DNA of 32,000 nucleotides from Candidatus Saccharimonadota bacterium (GTDB taxonomy: Archaea; Nanohalarchaeota; Nanosalinia; Nanosalinales; Nanosalinaceae): assembly GCF_029232205.1 (NCBI RefSeq), contig NZ_CP107255.1, forward strand, positions 600,001 to 632,000, written 5' to 3'. The translations under genes and the position numbers were made by a program. Under the pieces are notes generated by a model. That model did no database searches, had not been told where the DNA came from, and worked only from the letters and a program-made list of their open reading frames with translations. Below are positions 5,029 to 32,000 of the stretch, piece after piece (position 1 is the stretch's first letter; each line of letters opens with the position of its first letter).

Positions 5029-5501
5029 TCCTCGTCTCCTTCTTCTTTTTCTCCTTTCATCTTGTCCAGCACTACTTCTTTGACTTCTCTGTCACTTTCT
5101 GCCTGTTTTTTGGCCTTCTTTTTCTCCGAGGATTTCTCTCTTATTGCACCTACTAGTTTCTTGATTCCACTGTAGATGTGTTTGAGTATGCGGTATGGTA
5201 TGGAGATCAGTGTTTCTGCTATTCCGTATGCTGAGGCCAGTACTGTGTATCCTACGTAGAGTGATGCTCCTGCGAATGCGAATAGTAGTATGTCGTTGAG
5301 GCCTGGCATTGTTCCGTATACTAGTTGTGTGAATGCGATGTATGTTCCTGCGGATAGTACTGAGACCATGATGGTTTCGAATACCATTTCCATCAGCTTG
5401 AAGGCTGCTATGAATGCTGCTAGAAGTAGGACTAGTAGAATTACTGTGCTGTATTCCTGTGGTAGCGAGCTGAATAGGCCTAGTGCCATTTTATTCTTCA
5501 C
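5025..5501 (-). CDS. Small polytopic membrane protein with a Lys/Glu-rich C-terminal tail
   Basis: 158-aa ORF with 3-4 hydrophobic helices. It overlaps or abuts the stop of the upstream 930-aa surface-protein gene (alternative start MALGLF at 5489), so co-transcription is likely. Confidence 0.6.
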   Translation of the reverse strand: MKNKMALGLFSSLPQEYSTVILLVLLLAAFIAAFKLMEMVFETIMVSVLSAGTYIAFTQLVYGTMPGLNDILLFAFAGASLYVGYTVLASAYGIAETLISIPYRILKHIYSGIKKLVGAIREKSSEKKKAKKQAESDREVKEVVLDKMKGEKEEGDED

Positions 5502-8283
5502 CTAGGTATTCGTATAGTGGGTCTCCGGGTTCTGGGATGTAGCTTGTGTAGAAGATGAACCCTCCTACTACCAGGATCAGTACTACCAGGATTATTGGAA
5601 GTATTCCCATGCCTCCGCTCTTCTGCTCTGTGTCTGTTGGAGGAGTGTCTGTTCCAGGGTCGTCTGATCCCCCGTTATTGTTATCTCCTTCCTGATTGTC
5701 CTCCTCGTCGTCCTGTTGCTGGTTATTGTTGTTTATCTGTGTTTCAAGAGACTCCAGATTGTTGATTGTCGACTGGTATGTATTGTAGGCCTGAATGTCG
5801 TCTCCTTTGCTCAAAGAGTCCTCCATTTTTGTTGCGTTCTGTCTTGCTGTCTCTAGCTGATTTATTACTCCTGTTGAAAAGGCCTGGCCCTGTAGTCTTG
5901 TTACCCAGGATGTTATGTTTTCTGATGCGGCCTGTGTTTCCGGCATGAATCTTGCTGTGATCTGTACTGTGTCAGTTGATCCTGTTTCGCTTGAGTTCTC
6001 TGGATCGTTCTGGTATGCTACGTATGTTACTTCTCTTTCAACTGTTCCGTAACTGTCTCTTGTGACCTGTGTTGTGAAAGGTTCCTGAGCGTCTACACTA
6101 ACTGTTGACCACTCTGATACCTCGAACATGCCTGTCTCTGACTGTATGTAGTTTATGTTTGTTGATCCATTGTTTTTTGCAATAAGCTGGAACTGGGAAC
6201 TAGATGACTGTATTACTCCGATATCCATCGAATCATTCATTATTTCCAGGTCTACTTCTGGCTCTGCGAAGTCTCCAGCAAGTCTTGTAGGAATACTTAA
6301 TCTCTGGCCTGATGAGTTCACTACTATCTCTCCGGAGACATTTACCGGTGTCTGCAGAGAGTAGTTTACATCGATGCTGTGGGAATCTGCCAGGTCTACT
6401 CCCATGACTGATGTTGTTACATAGTCCGAGATCTGGCCTGTGGTGTATATTTCTGTCTGTACTGAACTTTCAGGGCCTATGTTGTAGATTTCGAAGCTTT
6501 CTGTTACTTCTCTTGGGCCTAGTAGTGTGACATTGATCGATTCTCTGTCTGCGCAAAGTGAGTTGTTTGTTATCTGGCAGTCAGGTGAGTTCAGGTTTAC
6601 ATCGATCGTTCTTGAGAACTCGGAGTTCATGTCTTCCAGAAGTATTTCTCCTTCATAGTCCTCTACTTCATCTACATCGAAGTTTACTGTGACATTTGTT
6701 TCGTTGTTTGGCGCTATTTCAATGTTGTTTCCATCGTTGATCGTTGTTATTCCCGAGATTTCGGACATTGCTGTTGCGTTGATTGTTATGCTATTTGAGA
6801 GCTGATTGGTTATTGTAAAGTTTTCACTGTAGTTTTTCCTGTTGACAATACTGACGTTGAGCTCATCTGTAGTATTGAAGATCTGTGTTGTTTCTTTTAG
6901 ATCGAATACAGGACTTACAGTCACTGTTTCTCCGTACTGATTGGAAAAGACTCCTGCAATAGTGTAGGTGCCATTCGGTGTTCCCTGAGGAATTACCATT
7001 GATCCTGTGGCCCATCCTGTTTCATTATCATAGGATAGATCGCTCTTTGAGAAAGTCTTGTACTCTGAACCGTTAGGATAATCTACTGTAATATCAGCTG
7101 ATGCGAAATCCTCATTTTCTACAGGCGTTCCTGTGTATCTCTTGTTTATTCCGAATTTAAGCTGGTACTCGGAGCCCTGATAGGCCGTATCTATCATATC
7201 TGTTGTAAGCGCAAATCTGGCCTTTGTTATATTGTAGAACCTTGTGCTCGTGCTGTAATTGTTCTTTGCCGTGAATTTGATGTAGATTTCTTCTGAGTAG
7301 CTGCTGGTATCTAGGTCTGGGAATGTTAAATTGCCTTCGTAGAGGCCTGTTTCCTCGCTCTTGTTTATGTAGCTGCTGGAGATTGTTTCCAGATTGTTTC
7401 CTTCGACGGATTTTCTCATTACTGCCATTGAGACATTGTTTGCGTGTGCGGAGGTTACGTTAAGGCCTAGATCTAGTTCTGCTCCTTCTTCACATTTTGT
7501 TGGCATGCTTTGCTGGTTGCAGCCTGTCTGTGCTTCCACTGTTGAGACTGAGGTGTTTAGGTAGTCTCTTGTGCTTATCATCTGAGTGGTTGTTGCTGTT
7601 TCCCCGTTGGCTGTGGCCTTTACTCTTAGTGAGTACTCTTGTTGTACTGCTTCCGGTATTATGAGCGAGTAGAGCCTGTATTTCTGGTTTGTTGAGTCAT
7701 CTGGGAAGGCCTGTGTGTTGAAGTATGTGGTGTTTGTTATTTCTACATCCAGGTCTGTTGTTGTCAGGAAGTCTCCGCTTGTGCTGTTTGTTACGTTTAC
7801 TTCGATTCTTGCGTCTTCTCTTCCTGGGAAGTAGGCCTGGCTCATGTCTGTTAGAATTGTGATTTTGACGTTGGAGATTGTGATCTGTTTGGTTGAGTTT
7901 GCTTCTTCATCTATTGGGGAGCCTCTCTGGGCCTCGAATCTGAACTTGCCATCTTTGTCTCCTACTGTTTTGTGGACGTACCATACTGCTCCGTTTAGGT
8001 ATTTTAGGTCTCCTGAGTTCCGTAGTGTGCCGTTTTCCAGGTAGAACCATTCTGCTCGGCCTTCGTATCTTTCTAAGTAGTCTTTTGTGATTGGGTCTCC
8101 AGTATCTCGGTGTCTTATTTCAACGTACTGTGTGGTTGCTCCCGCAGGCGAGATTGTGGAGTAGCTGTCTGGAGCATTCATAGGTGTGACTTCCCATGCC
8201 GGTGCTGAAGCTGCTAGAGAAGTGGTGATTAGAAGGGTTGAAACCAAGATAAGTGACTTAACAAGATTTCTGCCTGCAGACAT
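5491..8283 (-). CDS. Large cell-surface glycoprotein candidate (S-layer or adhesin-like)
   Basis: 930 aa. Signal peptide LILVSTLLITTSLAASAPA. About 30 N-x-S/T sequons. C-terminal Asn/Gln/Asp-rich stalk, a single TM (ILPIILVVLILVVGGFIFY) and a short acidic tail. Confidence 0.75.
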   Translation of the reverse strand: MSAGRNLVKSLILVSTLLITTSLAASAPAWEVTPMNAPDSYSTISPAGATTQYVEIRHRDTGDPITKDYLERYEGRAEWFYLENGTLRNSGDLKYLNGAVWYVHKTVGDKDGKFRFEAQRGSPIDEEANSTKQITISNVKITILTDMSQAYFPGREDARIEVNVTNSTSGDFLTTTDLDVEITNTTYFNTQAFPDDSTNQKYRLYSLIIPEAVQQEYSLRVKATANGETATTTQMISTRDYLNTSVSTVEAQTGCNQQSMPTKCEEGAELDLGLNVTSAHANNVSMAVMRKSVEGNNLETISSSYINKSEETGLYEGNLTFPDLDTSSYSEEIYIKFTAKNNYSTSTRFYNITKARFALTTDMIDTAYQGSEYQLKFGINKRYTGTPVENEDFASADITVDYPNGSEYKTFSKSDLSYDNETGWATGSMVIPQGTPNGTYTIAGVFSNQYGETVTVSPVFDLKETTQIFNTTDELNVSIVNRKNYSENFTITNQLSNSITINATAMSEISGITTINDGNNIEIAPNNETNVTVNFDVDEVEDYEGEILLEDMNSEFSRTIDVNLNSPDCQITNNSLCADRESINVTLLGPREVTESFEIYNIGPESSVQTEIYTTGQISDYVTTSVMGVDLADSHSIDVNYSLQTPVNVSGEIVVNSSGQRLSIPTRLAGDFAEPEVDLEIMNDSMDIGVIQSSSSQFQLIAKNNGSTNINYIQSETGMFEVSEWSTVSVDAQEPFTTQVTRDSYGTVEREVTYVAYQNDPENSSETGSTDTVQITARFMPETQAASENITSWVTRLQGQAFSTGVINQLETARQNATKMEDSLSKGDDIQAYNTYQSTINNLESLETQINNNNQQQDDEEDNQEGDNNNGGSDDPGTDTPPTDTEQKSGGMGILPIILVVLILVVGGFIFYTSYIPEPGDPLYEYLGEE

Positions 8284-20518: not shown

Positions 20519-21943
20519 ATGAGGCCTGAGGTATTTTCAGAGCGTTCTAAAATTTTTTGTCTTTCGGCCTCTGTCCTGGCATGTTTTACTTTGTTTTTGG
20601 GCTTTTATGGTGTTTCGGAGCCAAATATTTCTTTTCAATCTCCGGATGATGGCCTGAGTTCTTCAGGAAGTACCGTGGGTTCTCTTGAGTCGGTGTCTTC
20701 AGATTCTGTAGAGCTTGAGAAAGGTCTTCGGGCGTATTACAGGTTTGATGATGCAGAGAATTCTGCAGGGTATTATTTCTCGGATAAGGCTGGTGGCGGT
20801 TTTGAGGCCGAGTTCGGGGATTCTAGTAGAGGCCTTATTGATTTTGATACTTCTGGTTACTGGAGGCCTGGAAGAGTTGGGGATTATTCTTTACGTTTTA
20901 ATGAGTCGAGGGATACGGAGGTTACTTTCGGTTTGAGTAGTGAGAGCAGGGATTCTCTGAATTCTGGTTCTTTTGCTGTTAGTTACTGGTTGAAGCCTGA
21001 GTCGACAACAGCCCGTCGTTGGGCTAATTATATGATGTTTTCTGGGTCTTCTTCCAGGGTTGAGATAATGGATCCTAGTGTTGATTGGGGCGGTATTGAG
21101 ACGCTTGCAGTTTTCTGGGAGAAGAGTGATGGTTCTGAGGTACGTGTTAATTCCACCTCAGATGCTACGGAGCTGGATCCTGGCGAGTGGAATAATGTTC
21201 TGTTTCAGTACGATGGCCAGGAGTTTGAGTTGTGGATTAACGGGGAGCTTGCAGAATCTAATAGTGTTTCAACTAGTTTAGAACCTGTTGATAGTCCTTT
21301 GGTGGCTTCAGGAGATAATATTACCTGGGGCCTTGACAATCTTGCTATCTACAATCGGAGTTTTTCCGGAAAAGAGGTCAGGGCCTTGAGCAACTTGACA
21401 GATAATTTCAGGAAGACTGATGAGTGGCGTTTTGAGGCTGGTTCTGGTTCTAAAGTGTATAACAGCGCTAATCTTGACAGGAAAGGTGTTCTGGATGCTG
21501 ATTCTGTTGTTCTGGACAATAATACCAATATTTCAGTTAATGGTTCTGTTCTTGATACGGGCCAGAACTTTACTATTTCTTTCTGGCTGAAGTCGGAGTA
21601 TAACGAGGTGAATGTTCTTTCAGGCCTTGATAGCGGTGTTTTCGTGGATATTGATGATGGTTTAAGCTGCGGTACTTATTCTGGGGCCGATATTGACAGT
21701 GTCGGTGGTACGAGGTTTTTCGAGAATAAGTGGAATCATGTCTCTCTGGTTCGTGATGACAGCGAGTTTACCTGCACGGTTAACGGAGAACGGTTGGGAA
21801 GCATGCAGTCCGCTGATATCAGTTCTGAGGCCTTTGTATTTGGTGGAAATATCAGTGGTTCGAGGAGTTTCAACATAGATGAGCTTAGATTGTATAATAG
21901 AAGTCTGACAGCATCGAATGTGGAGAGCCTGGGGTTTCGGTAG
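20519..21943 (+). CDS. N-terminally anchored double LamG (concanavalin-A-like lectin) domain surface protein
   Basis: TM/signal FCLSASVLACFTLFLGFYG. Two LamG_3-type modules each end in the hallmark LAIYNRSFSGKEVRAL or ELRLYNRSLTASNVESL. W-x-H/N-V core strands are present. Confidence 0.8.
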   Translation: MRPEVFSERSKIFCLSASVLACFTLFLGFYGVSEPNISFQSPDDGLSSSGSTVGSLESVSSDSVELEKGLRAYYRFDDAENSAGYYFSDKAGGGFEAEFGDSSRGLIDFDTSGYWRPGRVGDYSLRFNESRDTEVTFGLSSESRDSLNSGSFAVSYWLKPESTTARRWANYMMFSGSSSRVEIMDPSVDWGGIETLAVFWEKSDGSEVRVNSTSDATELDPGEWNNVLFQYDGQEFELWINGELAESNSVSTSLEPVDSPLVASGDNITWGLDNLAIYNRSFSGKEVRALSNLTDNFRKTDEWRFEAGSGSKVYNSANLDRKGVLDADSVVLDNNTNISVNGSVLDTGQNFTISFWLKSEYNEVNVLSGLDSGVFVDIDDGLSCGTYSGADIDSVGGTRFFENKWNHVSLVRDDSEFTCTVNGERLGSMQSADISSEAFVFGGNISGSRSFNIDELRLYNRSLTASNVESLGFR

Positions 21944-22502: not shown

Positions 22503-23408
22503 ATGAATTTCATGGTATTTGTCTTCCTGTCTCACGCCCTGACTTTCGGAATGCTTTTCGTGGCCTCGCTTTTTGACCTGGATACTACTGATGTTCCTGA
22601 TGTTTTCTGTGCCACAGCAGTCCTCGGAGGTTTAGGCCTTCATTTCTTGGCGTCGAGGCCTCTTCAGATCGGTATTATATCGGGTTTTGTTTCTGAGAAT
22701 GGTTTTCTGGCACTGGCCTCGCTGGAAGGAATCGGTGCTTTGATGGCTGGCATTGGCGATCCCCTGGCTTATTCTATTGGTGTTGGCCTTATTTTCTCTG
22801 TTATTGGCTGGGGTGCTTACTTGAGAGGTATGTGGGGCGGTGCTGATGCATTTGCTATGAGTGCTCTTGGTTTTGGCGCTCCTTTCGTCGGCTCAGCTAC
22901 GTTAATCGATCCCCTGAATCTTTTCGTGAATATTACACTAGCTGGATTTATCTACATCATGGTTTATACCCTGTACAGGAGTTTTCAGCACCCTGAGGTT
23001 TGGAGAAAGTCTTATAATCGTATAATTGAAGATAGAATGCGTATAGGCCTTGAGTTGGCTGCTCTAGCTGTTTTCTCTATTATTGCTTTCCGGGCTGGTA
23101 TGCCTGTTGTGCCTTTTTCGAGTCTTCTGGGTTTCATGATCTTCCTCACTCGTTTCCTTGAGGTTGTTCAGGATGAGGCCTTTTACCGTGTTGTTGATGC
23201 CGATGATCTGGAGGTTGGAGAGGTTGCTGCTCCAGGTCAGGGATTTGGAGATAAGATTGTCGGCTTGACTGAAGAAGATATAGAGAATTTTGAGGGAGAA
23301 GAGCTTGAGGTCCGGGAAGGAGTTCCTTTCATGCCGGTCTTTGTCCTGGCCCTTGTCTTGACCGATGTCTTCGGTGCTGGCTTCCTTCTTTTCTCAGCGG
23401 TTTTCTGA
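22503..23408 (+). CDS. Archaeal prepilin/preflagellin (class III signal) peptidase, A24 family
   Basis: Polytopic membrane protein with two catalytic Asp contexts, FDLDTTDVPD and MWGGADAFAMSALG, plus a soluble insertion and C-terminal domain as in FlaK/PibD-type enzymes. Confidence 0.8.
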   Translation: MNFMVFVFLSHALTFGMLFVASLFDLDTTDVPDVFCATAVLGGLGLHFLASRPLQIGIISGFVSENGFLALASLEGIGALMAGIGDPLAYSIGVGLIFSVIGWGAYLRGMWGGADAFAMSALGFGAPFVGSATLIDPLNLFVNITLAGFIYIMVYTLYRSFQHPEVWRKSYNRIIEDRMRIGLELAALAVFSIIAFRAGMPVVPFSSLLGFMIFLTRFLEVVQDEAFYRVVDADDLEVGEVAAPGQGFGDKIVGLTEEDIENFEGEELEVREGVPFMPVFVLALVLTDVFGAGFLLFSAVF

Positions 23409-23990
23409 GATATCTTTGTAGGCCTTCTTGATTTCTCTTTCCAGGACGTGAGCTTCTTCCTCGATTTCTGCGTAGTTGAACCATGTTATCCACATTACGA
23501 GAACTAGTGCTGTGAGACCCCATTTCCAGAGGAATCCGTGGATTACTCCGAAGGATATTATTCCTGCTTCTGCGAGGTATATTGTGGATACTACTCTGAC
23601 GATGTTTGCCAGGTAGATGAGGATTATTCCACCGAATACGTATTTGAGGTGGTTTCTGAATTTTGCTGATCCTGCGAATACGAGGCCTGTGAACATGGCC
23701 ATTGATTTCCATCCCAGGCAGTCCTGTGTTATGTAGTATCGGGCTTTTTCGCTGATGAGGTATATTCCCTCTTGTTGGAGGTTGAGGCCTATTGTGGATA
23801 GTACTGCGTCGACCTGTTGGGCGAGCGCGATCTGTAGTGTGGTTGTATCCGGGTAGATGTTGAGTATGAGGTGGAATACTGCTCCTGCGGCCAGGAGTTT
23901 TATCATGAATAGAAGTGTCTTGTTGAGTTTTTCCTGGCGTTCTGTTAGGTCTGCTGTGGTGAACACGTTATCTTGACTCGCGGTATTCAT
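23394..23990 (-). CDS. Archaeosortase/exosortase-family membrane protein (small subtype)
   Basis: Polytopic protein with a Cys motif (ITQDCLGWKSM), an Arg motif (LANIVRVV) and a His motif (VIHGFLWKWG) in the order typical of exosortase/archaeosortase transpeptidases. Confidence 0.65.
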   Translation of the reverse strand: MNTASQDNVFTTADLTERQEKLNKTLLFMIKLLAAGAVFHLILNIYPDTTTLQIALAQQVDAVLSTIGLNLQQEGIYLISEKARYYITQDCLGWKSMAMFTGLVFAGSAKFRNHLKYVFGGIILIYLANIVRVVSTIYLAEAGIISFGVIHGFLWKWGLTALVLVMWITWFNYAEIEEEAHVLEREIKKAYKDISENR

Positions 23991-25002
23991 CTATTACTTT
24001 TCGGAAGTTTTTAGCTTTAGGAAATTCTTCGACAACCGCGTATCTTTCGAGTTCTACGGCCTCAACTTCTTCTACATGTCTTATATTGAATCCTCGGGCC
24101 TCCAGTTTCTCTTTGAGTTCTTCTGATCTTGTGAGGGATTTGTCCGGTACCTGGTCTGTTCTGTGGGTTACTATCTCTATGAGTTCTCCGCCGTTTGAAA
24201 GTTTTTTCAGGGCCTTTTTGTATTGTTCTTCTCGTATCTCTGTTTTTTCCAGTTTTTCTTCAAGTTCCTGTATTCTGGAGTTTTTCTTTTTGAGTTTGGC
24301 CTCTCTTTTGGTTATTTCTTGTTCTTTGAGGACTTCCTGCCGGTCTTCTTCCTTTATTTTGTCAACTTTGCCGCGGAGTCTGTCGTTTTCGGCCTCCATT
24401 TCTCCCATTTCCGATTTGAGTTCGTTTACCTGTTCTTCCAGATTCTGGATTTTGGCCTCCATTCTCTCCTTTTCCGGATCCACTTCTTCTTTTTCAGGCC
24501 TTGATTCCTCCACGTTTATTTTCTGTGGTTCCTGTTCCTGTTCTTCTTTGTTTTCCTGGTTTTGTTGTCGTATTGGCTGGTTTGAGAAGTATCTGTCGGC
24601 TATTACTGTTTTTTCTTCTTCGAGTTCGTTGGAGAATTTCTCTATTTTTCTTATTTCTCTCTGCATGTTGTTGTAGGCGTTGATTGCTGAGGCCGCTGCG
24701 TCTATTTCGTGCGAGTTTTCTCCGTGGCCCAGTTCTTTCTTTTTGTCTTGTTCCAGGTCTCTGTCTGGTACGTATGTTTCTGCTCCGAGCGATGATGCTA
24801 TTTTGTCTACTTTGGAGGGCATTTTGGCTTTGTCGGAGGTGACTACTATGGGTTTACCTGTCTCTATTATTTTTTCGATTATCTGGCTTGGCGGGAAGTT
24901 TTTGGATGAGTGTAGAAGTTTTATTTCGCCTTGTAGGTTGATGGCTGCTACTGCGGATGTGCTTCCGGGATCTATTCCTATTATCAGTGGTTTTTTACTC
25001 AT
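23968..25002 (-). CDS. DUF460/COG2433 protein (RuvC/RNase H-fold N-domain + long coiled coil)
   Basis: LIIGIDPGSTSAVAAINLQG and GKPIVVTSDKAKMPSKVDKIAS match the DUF460 N-domain. The central Glu/Lys-rich coiled coil is also typical. It overlaps the hef stop by 8 nt. Confidence 0.8.
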   Translation of the reverse strand: MSKKPLIIGIDPGSTSAVAAINLQGEIKLLHSSKNFPPSQIIEKIIETGKPIVVTSDKAKMPSKVDKIASSLGAETYVPDRDLEQDKKKELGHGENSHEIDAAASAINAYNNMQREIRKIEKFSNELEEEKTVIADRYFSNQPIRQQNQENKEEQEQEPQKINVEESRPEKEEVDPEKERMEAKIQNLEEQVNELKSEMGEMEAENDRLRGKVDKIKEEDRQEVLKEQEITKREAKLKKKNSRIQELEEKLEKTEIREEQYKKALKKLSNGGELIEIVTHRTDQVPDKSLTRSEELKEKLEARGFNIRHVEEVEAVELERYAVVEEFPKAKNFRKVIDEYRESR

Positions 25003-27169
25003 AGCTCTGTGAGATCATTTTGCGGATGGATTCGGCTTTTTTATCGCCTATGCCTTCGACTTGTTTAAGTTCTTCTTCCGAAGCGGTAAATATTTTCTGT
25101 ATGGATTCGAATTCTTTGAGAAGTCTTTCCGCGATTTTTGTGTTGACTCCGGGTAGGCCTGCTACTACGAACTGCATTCTTTCTTTCCGGCTTTTTCCTT
25201 CGCTGGTTCCTCTTACTGCTACGTCTTTTTCTTTGTCTTCCTGTTCTCTGCGGGCCATTGATTCCAGCATTTCTGCCGTGTCTTTTTCGTTTTCTGTCCA
25301 CACAATTGGCATTCCGTAGTCGAGTGCTACTGAGGCCATTGCTCCTCTGATTGCGTCTGGGTCGACGTCTCTGTGGTTGTAGAGGTTGCGGCCTTCGATT
25401 ACTATCATTGGGTTAGCGAACTGTTGGAGTTCCTGTATCTGGTCGAATAGTCTCTGGTCGATCATTGAGTCGACGAAGTCTTCGGCCTTTTTTCTTTCTA
25501 TGGCCGTATCCTCAGATATGAGGAAGTCTGCTACATCCAGTCTCTGTTTGTCGACTTCAATATTTTTTCTGGAGAGTTCCTTGGCTATCGAGTTTTCTCT
25601 GTCGTCCGCTATCACTTTTACGTTATCCGTGTCTTCTTCATCGTCATCGAGTTTGGTTACTTTGGATTCATCATTATAGTTCTGCAGTGTCTGCTGTTCC
25701 TGGCCCAGATCCTCGTTTTTAAGTTGCTGGAGGACTTTGTTCATGTTTTTCTTTTTGTGATGTGCGCTCCAGTAGTATCCTTCATCTCGAGTGTTTTCTG
25801 CGATGAGTACGTGGACTTCTCCTGATTCCTGGCGGCCTGTTCTTCCTGCTCTCTGTATGCTTCTGATTGCGGAGGGTACTGGTTCGTAGAAGATTACCTT
25901 GTCGACTGCTGGTATGTCGAGGCCTTCTTCTCCGATGCTTGTTGAGACTACTGCGTTGTATTTGCCGGCTTCGAATTCTTCCAGTGTTTCTATTTGCTGT
26001 GTCTGGCTCATTCCTTCGTCGCCTTGCTGGCCGATGAATTTTGTTGCGTTGTGGCCTTCTTCACTCAGTCTTTCTACTATTTTTTCGGTGGAGTTTCTGT
26101 ATTCTGTGAAGATCAGTGCTTTTTCGTCTTTTCCGAGGTCTTCTAGCATGTTGACAAGTTTTTCGACTTTTGGGTGTTCTTCCTCTTTTTTCATGAGGTA
26201 CTCTACCATGGCCTTGGCTTTCTGGAAGTCGTCGTCGGCGAGTGCTCTTCCTGCGGCCTTGGAGTCGTCGTTTTCGAGGCCTTTGATGTATTCGTAGCAC
26301 TGTGATACGCCCTGTGTTTCGAGGAGTTCTATTGCCTGTGATATTTTGAGGGCTGTTGCTACGTGGCTGATTGCTGCGTATAGTTCTGAGTCATCGCTTT
26401 GTGATAGTTTGGAGCTGATTTTTCCTCTGAGGTTGAGAAGGTCTGTTTTCCGGACGTTGCTGATGGAGGAGATCTGGCCCATGTTCTTGAGTTTTTTGAG
26501 TTGTGTTCTGTATGCGTCCTCCATCTTGTTTTTTGCGTTTTCGAATCTGTTGTTGAGTTCGACTTTGGTCCAGTTGACTTCTTTTTCTTGTATGTATGGT
26601 TCTACGTCCGGGTCGTCTTCTGTGCGGACTTCGAAGTTGTTGATTTCCAGGTTTTCTGCTACATCCATGATTTTTTCTTTGCTTCCTCCTGGAGATGCTG
26701 TTAGTGCAAGTCTCTGGCACCGCATTTTTTCGCTGATGAAGTTGTATGAGTAGTCTCCTGTTGCTCTGTGAGCCTCGTCGAATATTACGAGTGAGAAGTC
26801 TTCTACTGGTACTTCGTTTGCGATCAGATCATTTTCCACTACCTGTGGTGTTCCGAAGAAGATGTTTTTTTCTTTCCAGAGTTCGTATCTTTTGTCTGGT
26901 CTTGTGCTTCCTGTCATTACCTGCATGTCGACTTCTGGTAGTTGGATGAGGTCTTTGAATGTGGATAGGTGTTGTTCTACTAGTGGTCTTGTTGGGGCCA
27001 TGAAGAGGACTTTGCCTTCCTGGAGTTTCATGGATGCTACCATTGCGGCGATTACTGTTTTTCCGAGGCCTGTGGGTAGGACGACTAGTGTGTTTCTGTC
27101 TTTGGCGGAGGCCGCGATTACTTCTTGGTATGTTCTGGATTCGAGTTTTTCCTGGTTTAGAAGTTTCAC
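24995..27169 (-). CDS. hef: Hef (helicase-associated endonuclease for fork-structured DNA; XPF/FANCM-like)
   Basis: SF2 helicase motifs VLPTGLGKTVIA, IFDEAHRATG, TSIGEEGLDIP and RAGRTGR. ERCC4 nuclease VADFLISEDTAIERKKAEDF. C-terminal tandem HhH (LPGVNTKIAERLL, VEGIGDKKAESI). Confidence 0.92.
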   Translation of the reverse strand: MKLLNQEKLESRTYQEVIAASAKDRNTLVVLPTGLGKTVIAAMVASMKLQEGKVLFMAPTRPLVEQHLSTFKDLIQLPEVDMQVMTGSTRPDKRYELWKEKNIFFGTPQVVENDLIANEVPVEDFSLVIFDEAHRATGDYSYNFISEKMRCQRLALTASPGGSKEKIMDVAENLEINNFEVRTEDDPDVEPYIQEKEVNWTKVELNNRFENAKNKMEDAYRTQLKKLKNMGQISSISNVRKTDLLNLRGKISSKLSQSDDSELYAAISHVATALKISQAIELLETQGVSQCYEYIKGLENDDSKAAGRALADDDFQKAKAMVEYLMKKEEEHPKVEKLVNMLEDLGKDEKALIFTEYRNSTEKIVERLSEEGHNATKFIGQQGDEGMSQTQQIETLEEFEAGKYNAVVSTSIGEEGLDIPAVDKVIFYEPVPSAIRSIQRAGRTGRQESGEVHVLIAENTRDEGYYWSAHHKKKNMNKVLQQLKNEDLGQEQQTLQNYNDESKVTKLDDDEEDTDNVKVIADDRENSIAKELSRKNIEVDKQRLDVADFLISEDTAIERKKAEDFVDSMIDQRLFDQIQELQQFANPMIVIEGRNLYNHRDVDPDAIRGAMASVALDYGMPIVWTENEKDTAEMLESMARREQEDKEKDVAVRGTSEGKSRKERMQFVVAGLPGVNTKIAERLLKEFESIQKIFTASEEELKQVEGIGDKKAESIRKMISQSYE

Positions 27170-27739: not shown

Positions 27740-28987
27740 TCAGTCCTCGAATGCGTCTGGTGTTCCTCCTGCGTGCCAGGATTTTCTTGGTCTCATCTGT
27801 ACTGGGTAGACTCTTTCGGAGTTGTCGTCCAGTATTAGGCCTGTTCCGGCTCTGTCAGGTAGTGCATCGATGTAGTGTTTCAGGTCGTGGCGCATGTATG
27901 TCTGCATGATTTCGCCTAATGCATCGATGTCCTGTTTTGCTGTCAGTCTGTGTGATAGAAGTACATCGCACTGGGAAAGTGCGTTTGGGTGAAGTTTTGC
28001 TGGTTGCTGGGTTGCAAGCACAAGCGATACACCTGGCTCTCTACCGATCTTCACCCATCTCAGAAGTGTGTCAGTGGCCGGAGTCTTGCCTTTGTTCGGT
28101 ACAAACTCGTGGGCTTCGTCAATCATCATCCATACGATAGGCATTTCGTTGGAATCAAGGCCTTGCATTTCGTCGAGTTCTTCCATTCTTCTTGCGGCCA
28201 TTCTCTGTCTTAGTATTTTTTCTCCGAGCAGTCCTACGATGAGGCCTCTTACCAGTTCGTCGTACATTGATACATCGACTACCGACATTTCTCCTCTTGT
28301 CGTGAACTGATCGAGCGAGGATTCGTCTCCGAATACTCCCCATTCTTCTGCTGTCATGAACCTGTTTTCGAGGGCCTTGACTGTTGATTCGTTGAAATCG
28401 AATTTTTTGATTGCCTTATTTATGTCGTCAAGATCGTAGTTTCGGCCTAGTTTGTCCTGTAGTTTTGAGATTGCTCTTTCAAGTAGGATGCCCATTTCTG
28501 AGTTCATTTCGATGTCGAATGCCATAGCCCAGTCTTGGGCTGAGAGTTCTGCTGGGTCGATTGTGAATGTGTTGTCGTATGGCATGTCTTTTTTGTCGAA
28601 TTCGTCTCTTCTTCCTTCTGGAATGTATATTTTGGCGTCGAAGGCCTCTGGTTTGGTGTCCCATTCTTCTAGCATGCCTGCTGCTCTGTCGTTTGGTCTT
28701 TTCATTGACCAGTAGATTCCCATTGAGTCGATAACTATCGTAGAAAGGTTGTCTGATACGTCTGTTGTCTGTAGTTCTTCTGCAATGGTTCCCATGGAGT
28801 AGGATTTACCTGTTCCTCTTTTACCGAAGATTCCCATGACGTGGGGCTTTGCCAGATCGAAGTATATTGTATTGGCTTTGTGTGCTTCCTCGTTTTCCCC
28901 TACTAGGTGTTTACCGATAACTCCTGTTCCTTTGAGGCCGTGTTTCTCTCTGTCCTCCTCATTTCTTCCTACACTGATCTTCGGCAT
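27740..28987 (-). CDS. HerA/FtsK-superfamily (DUF87-type) P-loop ATPase lacking an N-terminal HAS-barrel
   Basis: Walker A GIFGKRGTGKSYSMG at about residue 55, Walker B VWMMIDEAHEF, and the downstream LATQQPAKLHPNALSQCDVLLSHRL segment typical of HerA-like ATPases. 415 aa. Confidence 0.85.
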   Translation of the reverse strand: MPKISVGRNEEDREKHGLKGTGVIGKHLVGENEEAHKANTIYFDLAKPHVMGIFGKRGTGKSYSMGTIAEELQTTDVSDNLSTIVIDSMGIYWSMKRPNDRAAGMLEEWDTKPEAFDAKIYIPEGRRDEFDKKDMPYDNTFTIDPAELSAQDWAMAFDIEMNSEMGILLERAISKLQDKLGRNYDLDDINKAIKKFDFNESTVKALENRFMTAEEWGVFGDESSLDQFTTRGEMSVVDVSMYDELVRGLIVGLLGEKILRQRMAARRMEELDEMQGLDSNEMPIVWMMIDEAHEFVPNKGKTPATDTLLRWVKIGREPGVSLVLATQQPAKLHPNALSQCDVLLSHRLTAKQDIDALGEIMQTYMRHDLKHYIDALPDRAGTGLILDDNSERVYPVQMRPRKSWHAGGTPDAFED

Positions 28988-29675: not shown

Positions 29676-30155
29676 TTAAATCTTCATTTCCATGCACATT
29701 TCCGCGACAGAATAGTTCTCCGAGTCACGAAGGATTTCCGGGTACTGCTGAATGTCATCGATATGAAGGCCTGTTTCCCCGTTTTCGTATGCTTCTCTGA
29801 CATCTTCCCATGGTACCATGTACGCTTTTCTGGCTCGGCCTCTACCTCTTTTGAGTTCGACTGCGAGAAATCCTGTTCTTCCAGATCTGTCCACGAAGTC
29901 GGATATTCTTTCTACCTGGTGGCCTCCGTTGCTCTGTGAGAAGTGCTGTGAGAAGTAAAGTTTGTTGGTTGAGGAGGTCTTCACCGATTTGTTTTCGATC
30001 GCCAGGTAAAACATGTCATGCTCTGAATCCACCAGTACATCACATAGCTGGCTGGAGAATCGGTGCTGTTTCTTTCGGTGAGCTATTCCATTTAGTTCTT
30101 CCTCATCGAAAAACTGGTTGAAAGAATTCACTAAGGCCCTTTCAAAGTCTGTCAT
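29676..30155 (-). CDS. PD-(D/E)xK nuclease-fold protein, Hjc-like Holliday junction resolvase candidate
   Basis: The order FERALV (Glu) ... CDVLVDS (Asp) ... YLAIENKS (E-x-K) matches the Hjc/restriction-endonuclease-like catalytic layout. 159 aa. Confidence 0.55.
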   Translation of the reverse strand: MTDFERALVNSFNQFFDEEELNGIAHRKKQHRFSSQLCDVLVDSEHDMFYLAIENKSVKTSSTNKLYFSQHFSQSNGGHQVERISDFVDRSGRTGFLAVELKRGRGRARKAYMVPWEDVREAYENGETGLHIDDIQQYPEILRDSENYSVAEMCMEMKI

Positions 30156-30220: not shown

Positions 30221-32000
30221 TTATTTGAATGCTAGAGCTTGAACTTCCTCTTTTGGAAGACTGCGATTATAGATCCTTAGCTCATCAGCTTTTCCTTCTA
30301 GATTTTCGCCCATAATTAATTTTCCAGAGGAATTAGAGTCCATTCCAACCTGCTTTGAGGATCTTTCTTGGCCTCCGATATACAGTTTTTGAGTTGAGCC
30401 ATTGAAGTTTAAAGATACGTGCCGCCATGAGGCCCCAATCTCTGCGGTTGTTATGCTTTTTCCAACAGAACCAACAACTACTTCGTCATCAATACCTAGA
30501 TAATAGTCTCCTTCATTTACAGAGGCAACAGTACCTACAGGATAGCGAACTAGAACAATACCAGAACCTCCGTCACCACCGAGGCCTCCACCATCACTTC
30601 CTCCGCCGCCACCTCCACCAGTGTTCGACATGCCGTCATATCCATTGTTATGCGTCTTGTCGCCTCCACCTTCACCACCGCCTCCTAATCCGCCTAGGCC
30701 TCCATAACCAGAACCATCTCCACCTGTATTTGCTCCTCCGCCACCTCCACCGGCGAAATATCCTTCGTCTCCGTATCTCATACCGAACTCTTCAGAGAAG
30801 TTTAGGCCTTTACCACCGTCTCCACCGTCGGTAGGATTAGTTATTACGATAGTCTCGCCCTGCTCTCCTGCTCCGCCTCCTCCAGCACCAAAGTCTCCGT
30901 TAGTGGTAGGTACGTCTCCACCATCGCTGCCTGAGCCTCTTGAAGTAATATCTTGCTGGGTTGAGTTTCCTCCTAAACCATTATCGTTGCCTGCTCCACC
31001 GCCAGATCCGCCGCTAAGACCATCTGAACCATCATCAGATCCTCTACCACCGCCTCCGCCTCCGATAGCTTTTACATCTTTAAAGCTCGAGTTTTCGCCG
31101 TTATTGCCGAAAGATGGCGTAGTTGTTCCTCCACTACCTCCATCTCCAACTTTAACGGTGTAGGCGCCTGAATTTAGACTATAATTATTCAGATATACGA
31201 GGCCTCCTGCTCCACCTCCTCCTGAGCCTCCATTATTATTTCCAGTATTTGAGGATCCTCCTCCGCCACCACCTGCAACTATAAGGGCGTCTACGTCTAA
31301 TTCTCCACCAGTGACATTTAGAGAAGATTCTCCTACGTTTGTAAATGCATGAACCTTGTAGAGAATTCCATTATCCTTGACATAATACTTATCTTCGCCT
31401 CCTATCACGTCAATGGAATCTTGATCAGATTTTACCCAGGAAGAAATAGTTACTTTACTATCAACGCTGGTAAGACCGAATTTCTTTATATTGCCGCTAT
31501 CTAAACCCACAGAATAGCTATCTAGAACTCCTCTTCTATTCATGTCTGAAGTATCATAAGCTGTTTTCCTATCACCTTCCTCAAATCTCCATCTGCCAAT
31601 TAGTCTATCATTAACCTGTTTGCCATTGTATAGAGCCCTAACTTCAGAAGTAGAAAGGGCCTTTGAGTATATTCTGGCGTCATCTATCTTACCGTTGAAA
31701 TAACCAGTTGTTCCTTCCTTATCAGCGCCTATTGTAACATCTGCATCAAAAGCTTCAAGGTTTCTATTTGTGGTTTCTGAACCTACTTGATCGCCGTTAA
31801 CATACAACTTCCTGGTTCCTGTCTTCTCTGAATATGTTAATGCGACGTGAACCCATTCATTATCTGGAATACTTGTTGCCGAGCCACAGTCATCCCCTCC
31901 ATCTCCAATGCACCCATATAATCCTCCAGATTTGGTAGCAATGAACCAGAAAAAGTTCCCTTCTCTCTTAGATATAATCTTATCATATGTTCCTGAGATA
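30221..32000 (-). CDS. LamG-domain surface protein with a nested glycine-rich domain (5' end lies beyond the right window edge)
   Basis: The track ORF starts at a TTG at 31807, but hand translation upstream (…NEWVHVALTYSEKTGTRKLYVNGDQ) stays open to 32000. LamG hallmarks ARIYSKALSTSEVRALY and LRIYNRSLPKEEVQAL are present. The Gly-rich core runs from YKVHAFTNVG…LIVAGGGGGG to …GSGIVLVRY. Confidence 0.85.
   Translation of the reverse strand, partial: ISGTYDKIISKREGNFFWFIATKSGGLYGCIGDGGDDCGSATSIPDNEWVHVALTYSEKTGTRKLYVNGDQVGSETTNRNLEAFDADVTIGADKEGTTGYFNGKIDDARIYSKALSTSEVRALYNGKQVNDRLIGRWRFEEGDRKTAYDTSDMNRRGVLDSYSVGLDSGNIKKFGLTSVDSKVTISSWVKSDQDSIDVIGGEDKYYVKDNGILYKVHAFTNVGESSLNVTGGELDVDALIVAGGGGGGSSNTGNNNGGSGGGGAGGLVYLNNYSLNSGAYTVKVGDGGSGGTTTPSFGNNGENSSFKDVKAIGGGGGGRGSDDGSDGLSGGSGGGAGNDNGLGGNSTQQDITSRGSGSDGGDVPTTNGDFGAGGGGAGEQGETIVITNPTDGGDGGKGLNFSEEFGMRYGDEGYFAGGGGGGANTGGDGSGYGGLGGLGGGGEGGGDKTHNNGYDGMSNTGGGGGGGSDGGGLGGDGGSGIVLVRYPVGTVASVNEGDYYLGIDDEVVVGSVGKSITTAEIGASWRHVSLNFNGSTQKLYIGGQERSSKQVGMDSNSSGKLIMGENLEGKADELRIYNRSLPKEEVQALAFK
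30560..31276 (-). repeat. Low-complexity glycine-codon tract, (GGN)n-rich on the coding strand and CCN-rich on the plus strand
   Basis: There are repeated runs such as ccgccgccacctccacc, ccgccacctccaccgg, ccaccgcctccgcctcc and cctcctccgccaccacctgc. They encode G5-G7 blocks spaced through about 240 codons. Confidence 0.8.

Follow-up and report, generated by a model that had tools for sequence, protein, structure and literature searches.

How ultrasmall symbiotic archaea recognise and hold their hosts is poorly understood, and LamG proteins are the usual suspects, without a defined binding tip. Candidatus Nanohalovita haloferacivicina is a cultivated nanohaloarchaeon, maintained in xylan-degrading consortia, that lives attached to Haloferax lucentense. 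The paper on its genome, which documents this attachment, reports at least 14 PKD/LamG surface-protein genes in the strain, whose products are predicted to fix the symbiont to its host (PMC10266531). A glycine-rich insert is not mentioned in that account. Here we describe a gene at the end of a 32,000-nucleotide (nt) stretch of contig NZ_CP107255.1 (positions 600,001 to 632,000; hereafter the window) that encodes a LamG-domain protein of 959 amino acids (aa), P0001. Its sequence supports the presence of a complete glycine-rich domain of the Gly_rich_2 family (PF21722) inside a loop of the third LamG domain (LamG3).

Several of the described glycine-rich systems closest to this one belong to viruses. 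In the cyanophage Pam3 tail fibre protein gp24 (7YPX/7YFW), glycine-rich motifs are arranged as a four-layer lattice on a TNF-like sandwich, the Gly stem being conserved and the distal tip variable; the TNF-like domain and the glycine-rich one have been assigned to receptor recognition, with the distal tip as the proposed receptor binder (PMC9608196). The same work reports a likeness to Caenorhabditis elegans ALK, at a root-mean-square deviation of 2.6 Å over 125 C-alpha atoms (PMC9608196). Siphovirus tail hubs carry Gly-rich fingers, termed 'polyglycine-rich' or 'brush' domains, which are regarded as candidate host-binding (anti-receptor) domains (PMC13243795). In T-even gp38 (Salmonella phage S16) and the hafunavirus tail-fibre adhesins, a conserved Gly-rich core is accompanied by variable segments that set receptor specificity and host range (PMC8651126, PMC9229481).

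Results

The gene lies on the minus strand, where 592 codons plus a stop were read from position 31999 to 30221, with the stop codon at 30221-30223. No stop codon occurs upstream inside the window, and the N-terminus lies past its end. In a database search the translated fragment proved 100% identical to P0001, recorded as 'LamG domain-containing protein [Ca. Nanohalovita haloferacivicina]', the N-terminal 367 residues of which (a hydrophobic N-terminus, LamG1, a linker and the start of LamG2) fall outside the window. P0001 possesses three LamG domains, of which LamG2 (residues 318 to 492) gave a full match to our own LamG hidden Markov model (HMM). An insert-free paralog elsewhere in the window (positions 20519-21943) served as the reference for the uninterrupted scaffold. 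Pfam Laminin_G_3 was detected in the long protein (E 4e-33) and, in two stretches, in the paralog (E 3.3e-29), the second stretch covering residues 334 to 468 (profile 3-150/151). An initial annotation of the window, made from the sequence alone and giving no strand, had placed both proteins on a common LamG-LamG scaffold and had suggested profile searches with Laminin_G_3 and glycine-rich families; every peptide that it quoted is present in the translations of 30221-31999 and 20519-21943. The two-domain description is accurate for the paralog, but the full long protein has three LamG domains, LamG1-LamG2 of the paralog corresponding to LamG2-LamG3 of the long protein.

Comparison of the two proteins by BLASTP confirmed their paralogy and divided the match in two: fragment residues 41 to 203 aligned with paralog residues 216 to 371 (31% identity, E 3e-17) and residues 525 to 592 with residues 405 to 474 (E 2e-7), leaving around 290 residues of the long protein between them without a counterpart. 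When the intact second LamG domain of the paralog (residues 300 to 474) was used as a phmmer query, its positions 3-74 matched P0001 residues 503 to 572 (E 3.1e-10) and its positions 75-175 matched residues 866 to 959 (E 1.6e-6). The flanks of the insert thus match the paralog domain in exactly complementary halves, and the orthologs P0002 and P0003 are split in the same way. An extended LamG HMM likewise matched the P0001 flanks at positions 3-93 (residues 496 to 566) and 136-210, so that either query finds the two halves of the LamG profile flanking the insert in the correct order. The C-terminal flank scored 47 bits against our own LamG HMM. Pfam recognised only the C-terminal half of Laminin_G_3 in the nested region (profile 79-151/151, E 1.2e-9).

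Deletion of the insert in silico yielded a sequence colinear with 27 intact LamG domains, with a single contiguous LamG HMM match over the junction (positions 36-179, 50 bits). The insertion point falls between the strands 'IDVI' and 'YYLGID', where the paralog has a five-residue loop, 'GLDSG'. The bounds of the insert, at about 30506-31399, were set from the split of the paralog match and from the conserved start of the domain, 'GG...YxVHAF'; the initial annotation had estimated them at about 30536-31393, in agreement with the Gly_rich_2 match at 30542-31339.

In local tests, MAFFT failed to align either whole LamG sequences or half-domains over the 290-aa gap, and an insert-deleted construct was therefore modelled with AlphaFold instead. 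The resulting model (predicted local distance difference test score (pLDDT) 66, predicted template modelling score (pTM) 0.71) is a LamG-type jelly roll with strands E69-73 and E78-82 bracketing the junction. Foldseek returned 215 matches in the PDB at E<=1e-3, among them the HcN domain of clostridial neurotoxin and domain 4 of the arabinanase AbnA, with template modelling (TM) scores of 0.55-0.67. The complementary matches, the contiguous HMM match and the jelly roll agree with the proposal in the initial annotation that the two flanks are halves of one LamG domain. We conclude that sequence supports the placement of Gly_rich_2 inside a loop of LamG3, and that structure prediction agrees with it without proving it.

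The insert itself comprises 293 aa, of which 35.8% are Gly, and contains ten runs of three or more Gly residues. No DNA microsatellite was found within it, only a single 15-nt tandem repeat. Gly_rich_2 matched fragment residues 221 to 486 over nearly its whole length (profile 2-225/226) with an E value of 6e-21 and 75.9 bits, against a gathering cut-off of 24.3; a repeat run on the sub-region gave 76.8 bits. All 26 aligned relatives of the insert (26/26) match the same family. Two alignments revealed motifs common to the relatives that are not simply Gly, namely YxVHAFT, VDVLVVAGGG, NGENSxF, FGxxYGExGYFAGGGGG, NTGGGGG and GSGIVLIRY.

A search of the predicted insert structure against the PDB gave as its best solved matches two chains of the mycobacteriophage Bxb1 tail tip (9d93_Qb, E 2e-5; 9d93_Qa, E 1e-4) together with Pam3 gp24 (7ypx_A, E 1.9e-4), all with a probability of 1.0. 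Against predicted viral structures, 203 matches were obtained at E<=1e-3, mostly annotated 'glycine-rich domain-containing protein' and drawn from cyanophages, prasinoviruses and Halorubrum phage HF2 (3e-18). The Gly-rich segments, modelled at pLDDT 85-98, were assigned neither helix nor strand by DSSP, a pattern compatible with polyglycine-II geometry though no proof of it. Profile and model together support the identification of the insert as a genuine glycine-rich domain like those of phage tail proteins, as the initial annotation had anticipated, and by the same measures it is placed in the polyglycine 'brush' class that occurs at the tips of phage tail fibres and in tail hubs.

The insert shares with the Gly_rich_2 family at large, which extends over bacteria, archaea, phages and algal viruses, a full-length profile match, all of the conserved motifs and the fold of the 203 viral models. 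It differs in being spliced into a LamG domain, whereas among the best database matches the two domains, where combined, lie mostly in tandem. Its nearest solved counterparts also show differences. Pam3 gp24 (TM 0.52 on the target) likewise combines a beta-sandwich base with a Gly-rich strand lattice, but it is a chaperone-dependent trimeric fibre with an N-terminal helical domain and a glycine-rich domain of only about 125 residues carrying 12 Gly motifs, and its identity to the insert is just 20-22%. The Bxb1 chains Qa and Qb (9D93), the best solved match, form part of a phage tail hub, not of a cellular protein. The adhesins of S16, other T-even phages and the hafunaviruses resemble the insert in possessing Gly-rich motifs but appear to represent a different Gly-rich family, and S16 gp38 was absent from the Foldseek matches of the insert against the PDB.

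The ligand-binding TNF-like plus glycine-rich (TG) region of ALK and LTK is a polyglycine lattice on a beta-sandwich, as the insert is predicted to be, and the 2021 structures of ALK are said to have the glycine-rich part embedded within a TNF-like domain, which would make that arrangement a nested one too. The initial annotation had gone further and related the insert to the ALK/LTK module. The two are connected only by weak Foldseek matches to LTK/ALK chains (ranks 6-16, E 0.085-1, probability <=0.13, TM <=0.2) and by the published likeness between Pam3 gp24 and ALK, and kinship was not borne out by sequence: the ALK-type family PF12810 gave no match in the long protein or in any of the 26 relatives at E<=1, and no ALK/LTK chain was returned by sequence or profile searches of the PDB. 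The ALK/LTK receptors thus show no detectable sequence relationship to the insert, and there are further differences: it is LamG that hosts the insert, which would have a cell surface as its ligand and not a cytokine. At most, the insert may work like an ALK-type polyglycine lattice; it is not an ALK-family member.

The Gly_rich_2 domain also occurs in stand-alone proteins that begin with bacterial prepilin ('GFTLIELL'), archaeal pilin-like ('GQSAIEYL') or twin-arginine-like ('RRTLL', 'RRTFL') export signals, which suggests that many lineages expose it on pili and on secreted proteins. Such signals were seen in P0114, P0116, P0120, P0080; P0033, P0053; P0006, P0044, P0046, P0052 and P0088.

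Among the 120 best database matches, 39 combine Gly_rich_2 with LamG, most of them in tandem. Nested cases fall at two insertion sites, numbered here on our own 215-position LamG HMM. Site A, at about position 95-100, is the one used in P0001-P0004 and is shared by P0241 (1218 aa), P0130, P0251 (6910 aa), P0032/P0271 and probably P0304. The split is clear in P0130, a 6766-aa protein from a Bacteroidales metagenome-assembled genome (MAG), whose LamG halves lie at HMM positions 8-97 (1.8e-11) and 131-214 (4.9e-20); in P0032/P0271 the same loop holds two Gly domains. Site B, at about position 45 and after the first strands, is occupied in P0017, P0022 and P0347, the first of which derives from Candidatus Pacebacteria.

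The counts of nested proteins are lower bounds, the word prefilter having been swamped by glycine words. A homolog search with a chimeric flank-only query gave no match, and a profile search with five nested segments returned only proteins with multiple Gly domains, missing the query's own family. A representative search with the C-terminal junction identified 5 nested proteins among the 150 matches listed, which were dominated by giant multi-LamG proteins, and a scan of species genomes confirmed at least 4 loci.

Since the nested unit recurs in other archaeal proteins and in a giant bacterial one, LamG with its insert is, as judged from these alignments, an inherited composite module of archaea and bacteria and not a one-off. 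By the same alignments the Gly domain is placed in LamG through at least two insertions, at sites A and B. More broadly, LamG plus brush appears to be a shared surface toolkit of Candidate Phyla Radiation (CPR) bacteria and DPANN archaea. The arrangement had been put forward as undescribed, and no paper joining 'LamG' with 'glycine-rich domain', or citing PF21722, was found in the literature searched; it is not, however, unique, as the same site is used in other archaeal proteins and in one from a Bacteroidales MAG. The individual parts are already catalogued in Pfam, and the composite exists outside this organism as well.

Three further proteins deserve mention. In the multi-LamG protein P0251 (about residues 1080-1490) the nested Gly domain lacks its first strands, and 'VTYRVHTFTSNGTF', following 'GIVIIRYP', resembles the missing start; the order could reflect a circular permutation or the remnant of a second copy. 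A giant open reading frame (ORF) of 2070 aa in a Candidatus Komeilibacteria MAG (L005, 1504-7713, plus strand) encodes one Gly domain followed by six LamG domains, and another of 2043 aa in a Patescibacteria MAG (L006, 1-6129, plus strand) encodes one LamG followed by two Gly domains.

HF2 (AF222060), a haloarchaeal myovirus of the genus Haloferacalesvirus, encodes a full-length Gly_rich_2 protein, HrrHF2_520 (297 aa, 30% Gly; 5.7e-55 to our own Gly-domain HMM), between the tape-measure and baseplate-J genes. In similarity to the Nanohalovita domain it ranks only 132 of 180, with 27% identity at non-Gly columns, compared with 41% for the nearest non-orthologous relative; a direct virus-to-symbiont transfer or specific exchange was rejected on this ranking. 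A tblastn search of the insert domain against 50,697 phage records gave no match, the low-complexity filter having probably masked the query.

The HF2 tail module contains two different glycine-rich proteins, HrrHF2_520 and HrrHF2_490 (AF222060 934-1971, 1978-3675 and 6315-7208, including VP1). HrrHF2_490 is 26.7% Gly, is not matched by our own Gly_rich_2 HMM and is followed by a small gene, and a concanavalin A-like domain is annotated in VP1, a minor virion protein. Gene position and the partner gene suggest that HrrHF2_490, of another Gly-rich family, and not HrrHF2_520 is the counterpart of the host-range adhesin published for hafunaviruses (PMC8651126); the equation of HrrHF2_520 with that adhesin was rejected as unproven.

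Discussion

We propose, with fair confidence, that P0001 is a surface protein of the ectosymbiont in which a brush nested in LamG3 provides a host-attachment tip. A hydrophobic anchor or signal at the N-terminus would be followed by three LamG (concanavalin A-like lectin) domains, the last of them predicted to be interrupted by a complete Gly_rich_2 domain in a hairpin between neighbouring beta-strands. Members of the brush class combine a small beta-sandwich base, Gly-rich strands forming a rigid lattice and variable loops at the far end. As the domain is predicted both to begin and to end in its beta-strand base, its two ends would lie close together, and it could therefore sit in a LamG loop and leave the sandwich undisturbed. 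The LamG array would act as a stalk and possibly bind glycans, while the brush would project outward and contact the Haloferax envelope, whether through the S-layer glycoprotein, a glycan or a lipid. In this it may resemble the receptor-binding tip of a viral tail fibre and help to determine attachment and host specificity.

A host-attachment role for the nested brush is plausible by analogy for several reasons: the lifestyle of the organism and the role already proposed for its LamG proteins (PMC10266531); the hydrophobic stretches at the N-termini of orthologs and paralog; the assignment of Pam3 gp24, one of the closest solved relatives, to receptor recognition (PMC9608196); and the fusion of stand-alone relatives to prepilin, pilin-like and twin-arginine-like signals. 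With three LamG domains, and an N-terminal hydrophobic helix in its orthologs (P0002-4, as also in the paralog), P0001 has the make-up of a DPANN LamG-type surface or adhesion protein. It is alike in this to the LamG/PKD surface proteins of DPANN archaea and CPR bacteria, which combine multiple LamG domains with an N-terminal anchor and for which host recognition and fixation have been proposed.

Several observations weigh against this proposal. When the intact 465-aa nested region was modelled, the insert was predicted at pLDDT 85-98 but the LamG flanks at less than 50, so that the loop insertion, for which an AlphaFold comparison had been suggested in the initial annotation, was unconfirmed in that model even though the deletion construct is LamG-like. 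The alignment behind the intact model held 4 nested and 22 Gly-only sequences, and the flanks were left unresolved because only these four sequences covered them. The deletion construct, for its part, is an artificial sequence, modelled under the guidance of aligned intact LamG domains, and the three-dimensional test of a single sandwich has therefore been counted only as consistent. On its own, the N-terminal flank scores 9 bits against a general LamG HMM, and its assignment leans mainly on the paralog. Surface exposure and host binding are predictions. The neighbours of the gene are housekeeping genes (Hef, FtsY, SRP54, CTP synthase and Pus10), with no adhesion or secretion operon. Finally, the Gly_rich_2 protein of HF2 has no assigned role, and the hafunavirus host-range adhesin appears to be a different Gly-rich protein (PMC8651126).

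The alternative that deserves most weight accepts the architecture but not the role. The protein might be a general component of the envelope or matrix, or a polysaccharide binder, with its LamG domains acting as carbohydrate-binding modules in a xylan/chitin-degrading consortium and the Gly lattice as a rigid spacer. The Foldseek matches of the LamG-like model do include the carbohydrate-binding domain 4 of AbnA, the organism was indeed cultivated in xylan-degrading consortia (PMC10266531) and the gene lacks adhesion or secretion neighbours; nevertheless, we consider this account unlikely, as the insert finds its best solved matches in tail-tip and tail-fibre proteins of phages, among them Pam3 gp24 with its assignment to receptor recognition (PMC9608196), and as pilin-type signals on stand-alone relatives fit adhesion better than passive structure. 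It is less probable still that a virus infecting the haloarchaeal host was the source of the module, which would then act as a receptor mimic or competitor and let the symbiont occupy or share a Haloferax receptor used by viruses. The HF2 tail module, with its full-length Gly_rich_2 protein, and the concanavalin A-like annotation of VP1 would suit such an origin, but the HF2 domain is no close relative by rank (132/180) and by non-Gly identity (27% versus 41%), and the search of phage records was empty, though with a query that was probably masked.

The remaining alternatives concern the architecture itself. Were the domains in tandem and not nested, the segment preceding the Gly domain would be a linker or small domain and the one following it a truncated LamG, as might be read from the half-length Pfam match (79-151), the 9-bit score of the N-terminal flank and the failure of the flanks to assemble in the intact AlphaFold model. 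We give this arrangement very little credence in view of the complementarity of the flanks to the intact LamG2 of the paralog, the clear halves at the same site in P0130 (1.8e-11 and 4.9e-20) and the contiguous HMM match and LamG-like fold of the deletion construct; moreover, half a LamG sandwich would presumably be unstable alone. Scarcely credible at all is a low-complexity disordered linker that matches Pfam by composition. A Gly content of 36%, and the removal of the whole stretch by the BLAST low-complexity filter, would be expected of such a linker, but that reading is contradicted by non-Gly motifs conserved in all relatives, a Pfam score three times the cut-off, a pLDDT of 85-98, significant fold matches to solved phage proteins and the absence of a DNA-level repeat. 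The similarity to known glycine-rich domains, on which the initial annotation had staked its interpretation of this region, is present (Gly_rich_2, E 6e-21).

P0001 offers a concrete candidate for a binding tip where none has been defined, namely a rigid glycine-rich module that is matched best, among solved structures, by tail-tip and tail-fibre proteins of phages, including one assigned to receptor recognition. As the symbiont is cultivated and some Haloferax species are genetically tractable, experiments on binding, blocking and host range are feasible. For protein evolution, the sequence evidence shows Gly_rich_2 to be insertable, with grafts at two or more different LamG loops in archaea and bacteria. 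A bolder extension, which we advance tentatively and regard as possible but doubtful, is that LamG with an embedded brush constitutes a conserved, horizontally spread adhesin 'supradomain' of surface-attached microbes (DPANN archaea, CPR bacteria and some Bacteroidales), used as viruses use polyglycine tail-fibre tips; in Ca. Nanohalovita it would then be a main determinant of the Haloferax strains to which the symbiont can attach, with the variable distal brush loops setting specificity. Were this so, the two independent insertion sites would show repeated grafting of the Gly domain into lectin loops. With the function inferred and the parts known, the protein is offered as a useful lead rather than a discovery.

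Other features of the window

The segments of the long gene and the location of its paralog are collected in Table 1.

Table 1. Positions of the nested LamG gene segments and of the paralog within the 32,000-nt window
Feature	Position	Strand	Basis
3' part of the gene for the 959-aa LamG-domain surface protein	30221..31999	-	Translation; identity to P0001
LamG domain 2, C-terminal part (fragment residues 1-125)	31625..31999	-	Laminin_G_3 at fragment 13-120, profile 42-150/151
LamG domain 3, N-terminal half, 'LIGRWRFEEGDRKTAYD ... TISSWVKSDQDSIDVI' (supported)	31400..31618	-	Paralog LamG2 match; extended LamG HMM
Glycine-rich insert (Gly_rich_2)	30506..31399	-	PF21722; AlphaFold; Foldseek
LamG domain 3, C-terminal half, 'YYLGIDDEVVVGSVG ... 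WRHVSLNFNGSTQKLYIGG ... ADELRIYNRSLPKEEVQALAFK' (supported)	30224..30505	-	Paralog LamG2 match; Laminin_G_3; own LamG HMM
Insert-free paralog, 474 aa, hydrophobic N-terminus and two intact LamG domains	20519..21943	+	Laminin_G_3; BLASTP to long protein

The annotated start of P0001, 'MVASISMLSS', aligns mid-way along the hydrophobic helix of the 84%-identical ortholog P0002 ('...AAILTVILVAALISILSS'); the true start probably lies upstream of the deposited codon, so that the signal or anchor would be truncated. Examination of the genomic context of the ortholog P0004 did not find conserved neighbours.

Amid housekeeping genes at 5491-8283 on the minus strand lies a 930-aa ORF without a Pfam match at E<=1e-5. 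No C-terminal sorting tail was found in either the long LamG protein or the paralog. Between the two LamG genes, the plus strand encodes a prepilin-peptidase-like protein at 22503-23408, with a weak Peptidase_A24 match below the cut-off (1.3e-3), and the minus strand an archaeosortase/exosortase-like membrane protein at 23394-23990 (Exosortase_EpsH, 1.4e-9). The Hef helicase-nuclease is located at 24995-27169 and a HerA-like ATPase at 27740-28987. Adjoining the long LamG gene, at 29676-30155 on the minus strand, is a gene for a protein of 159 aa that resembles the archaeal Holliday-junction resolvase Hjc only weakly, scoring 18.1 bits (E 0.0025) where the cut-off is 21.1.

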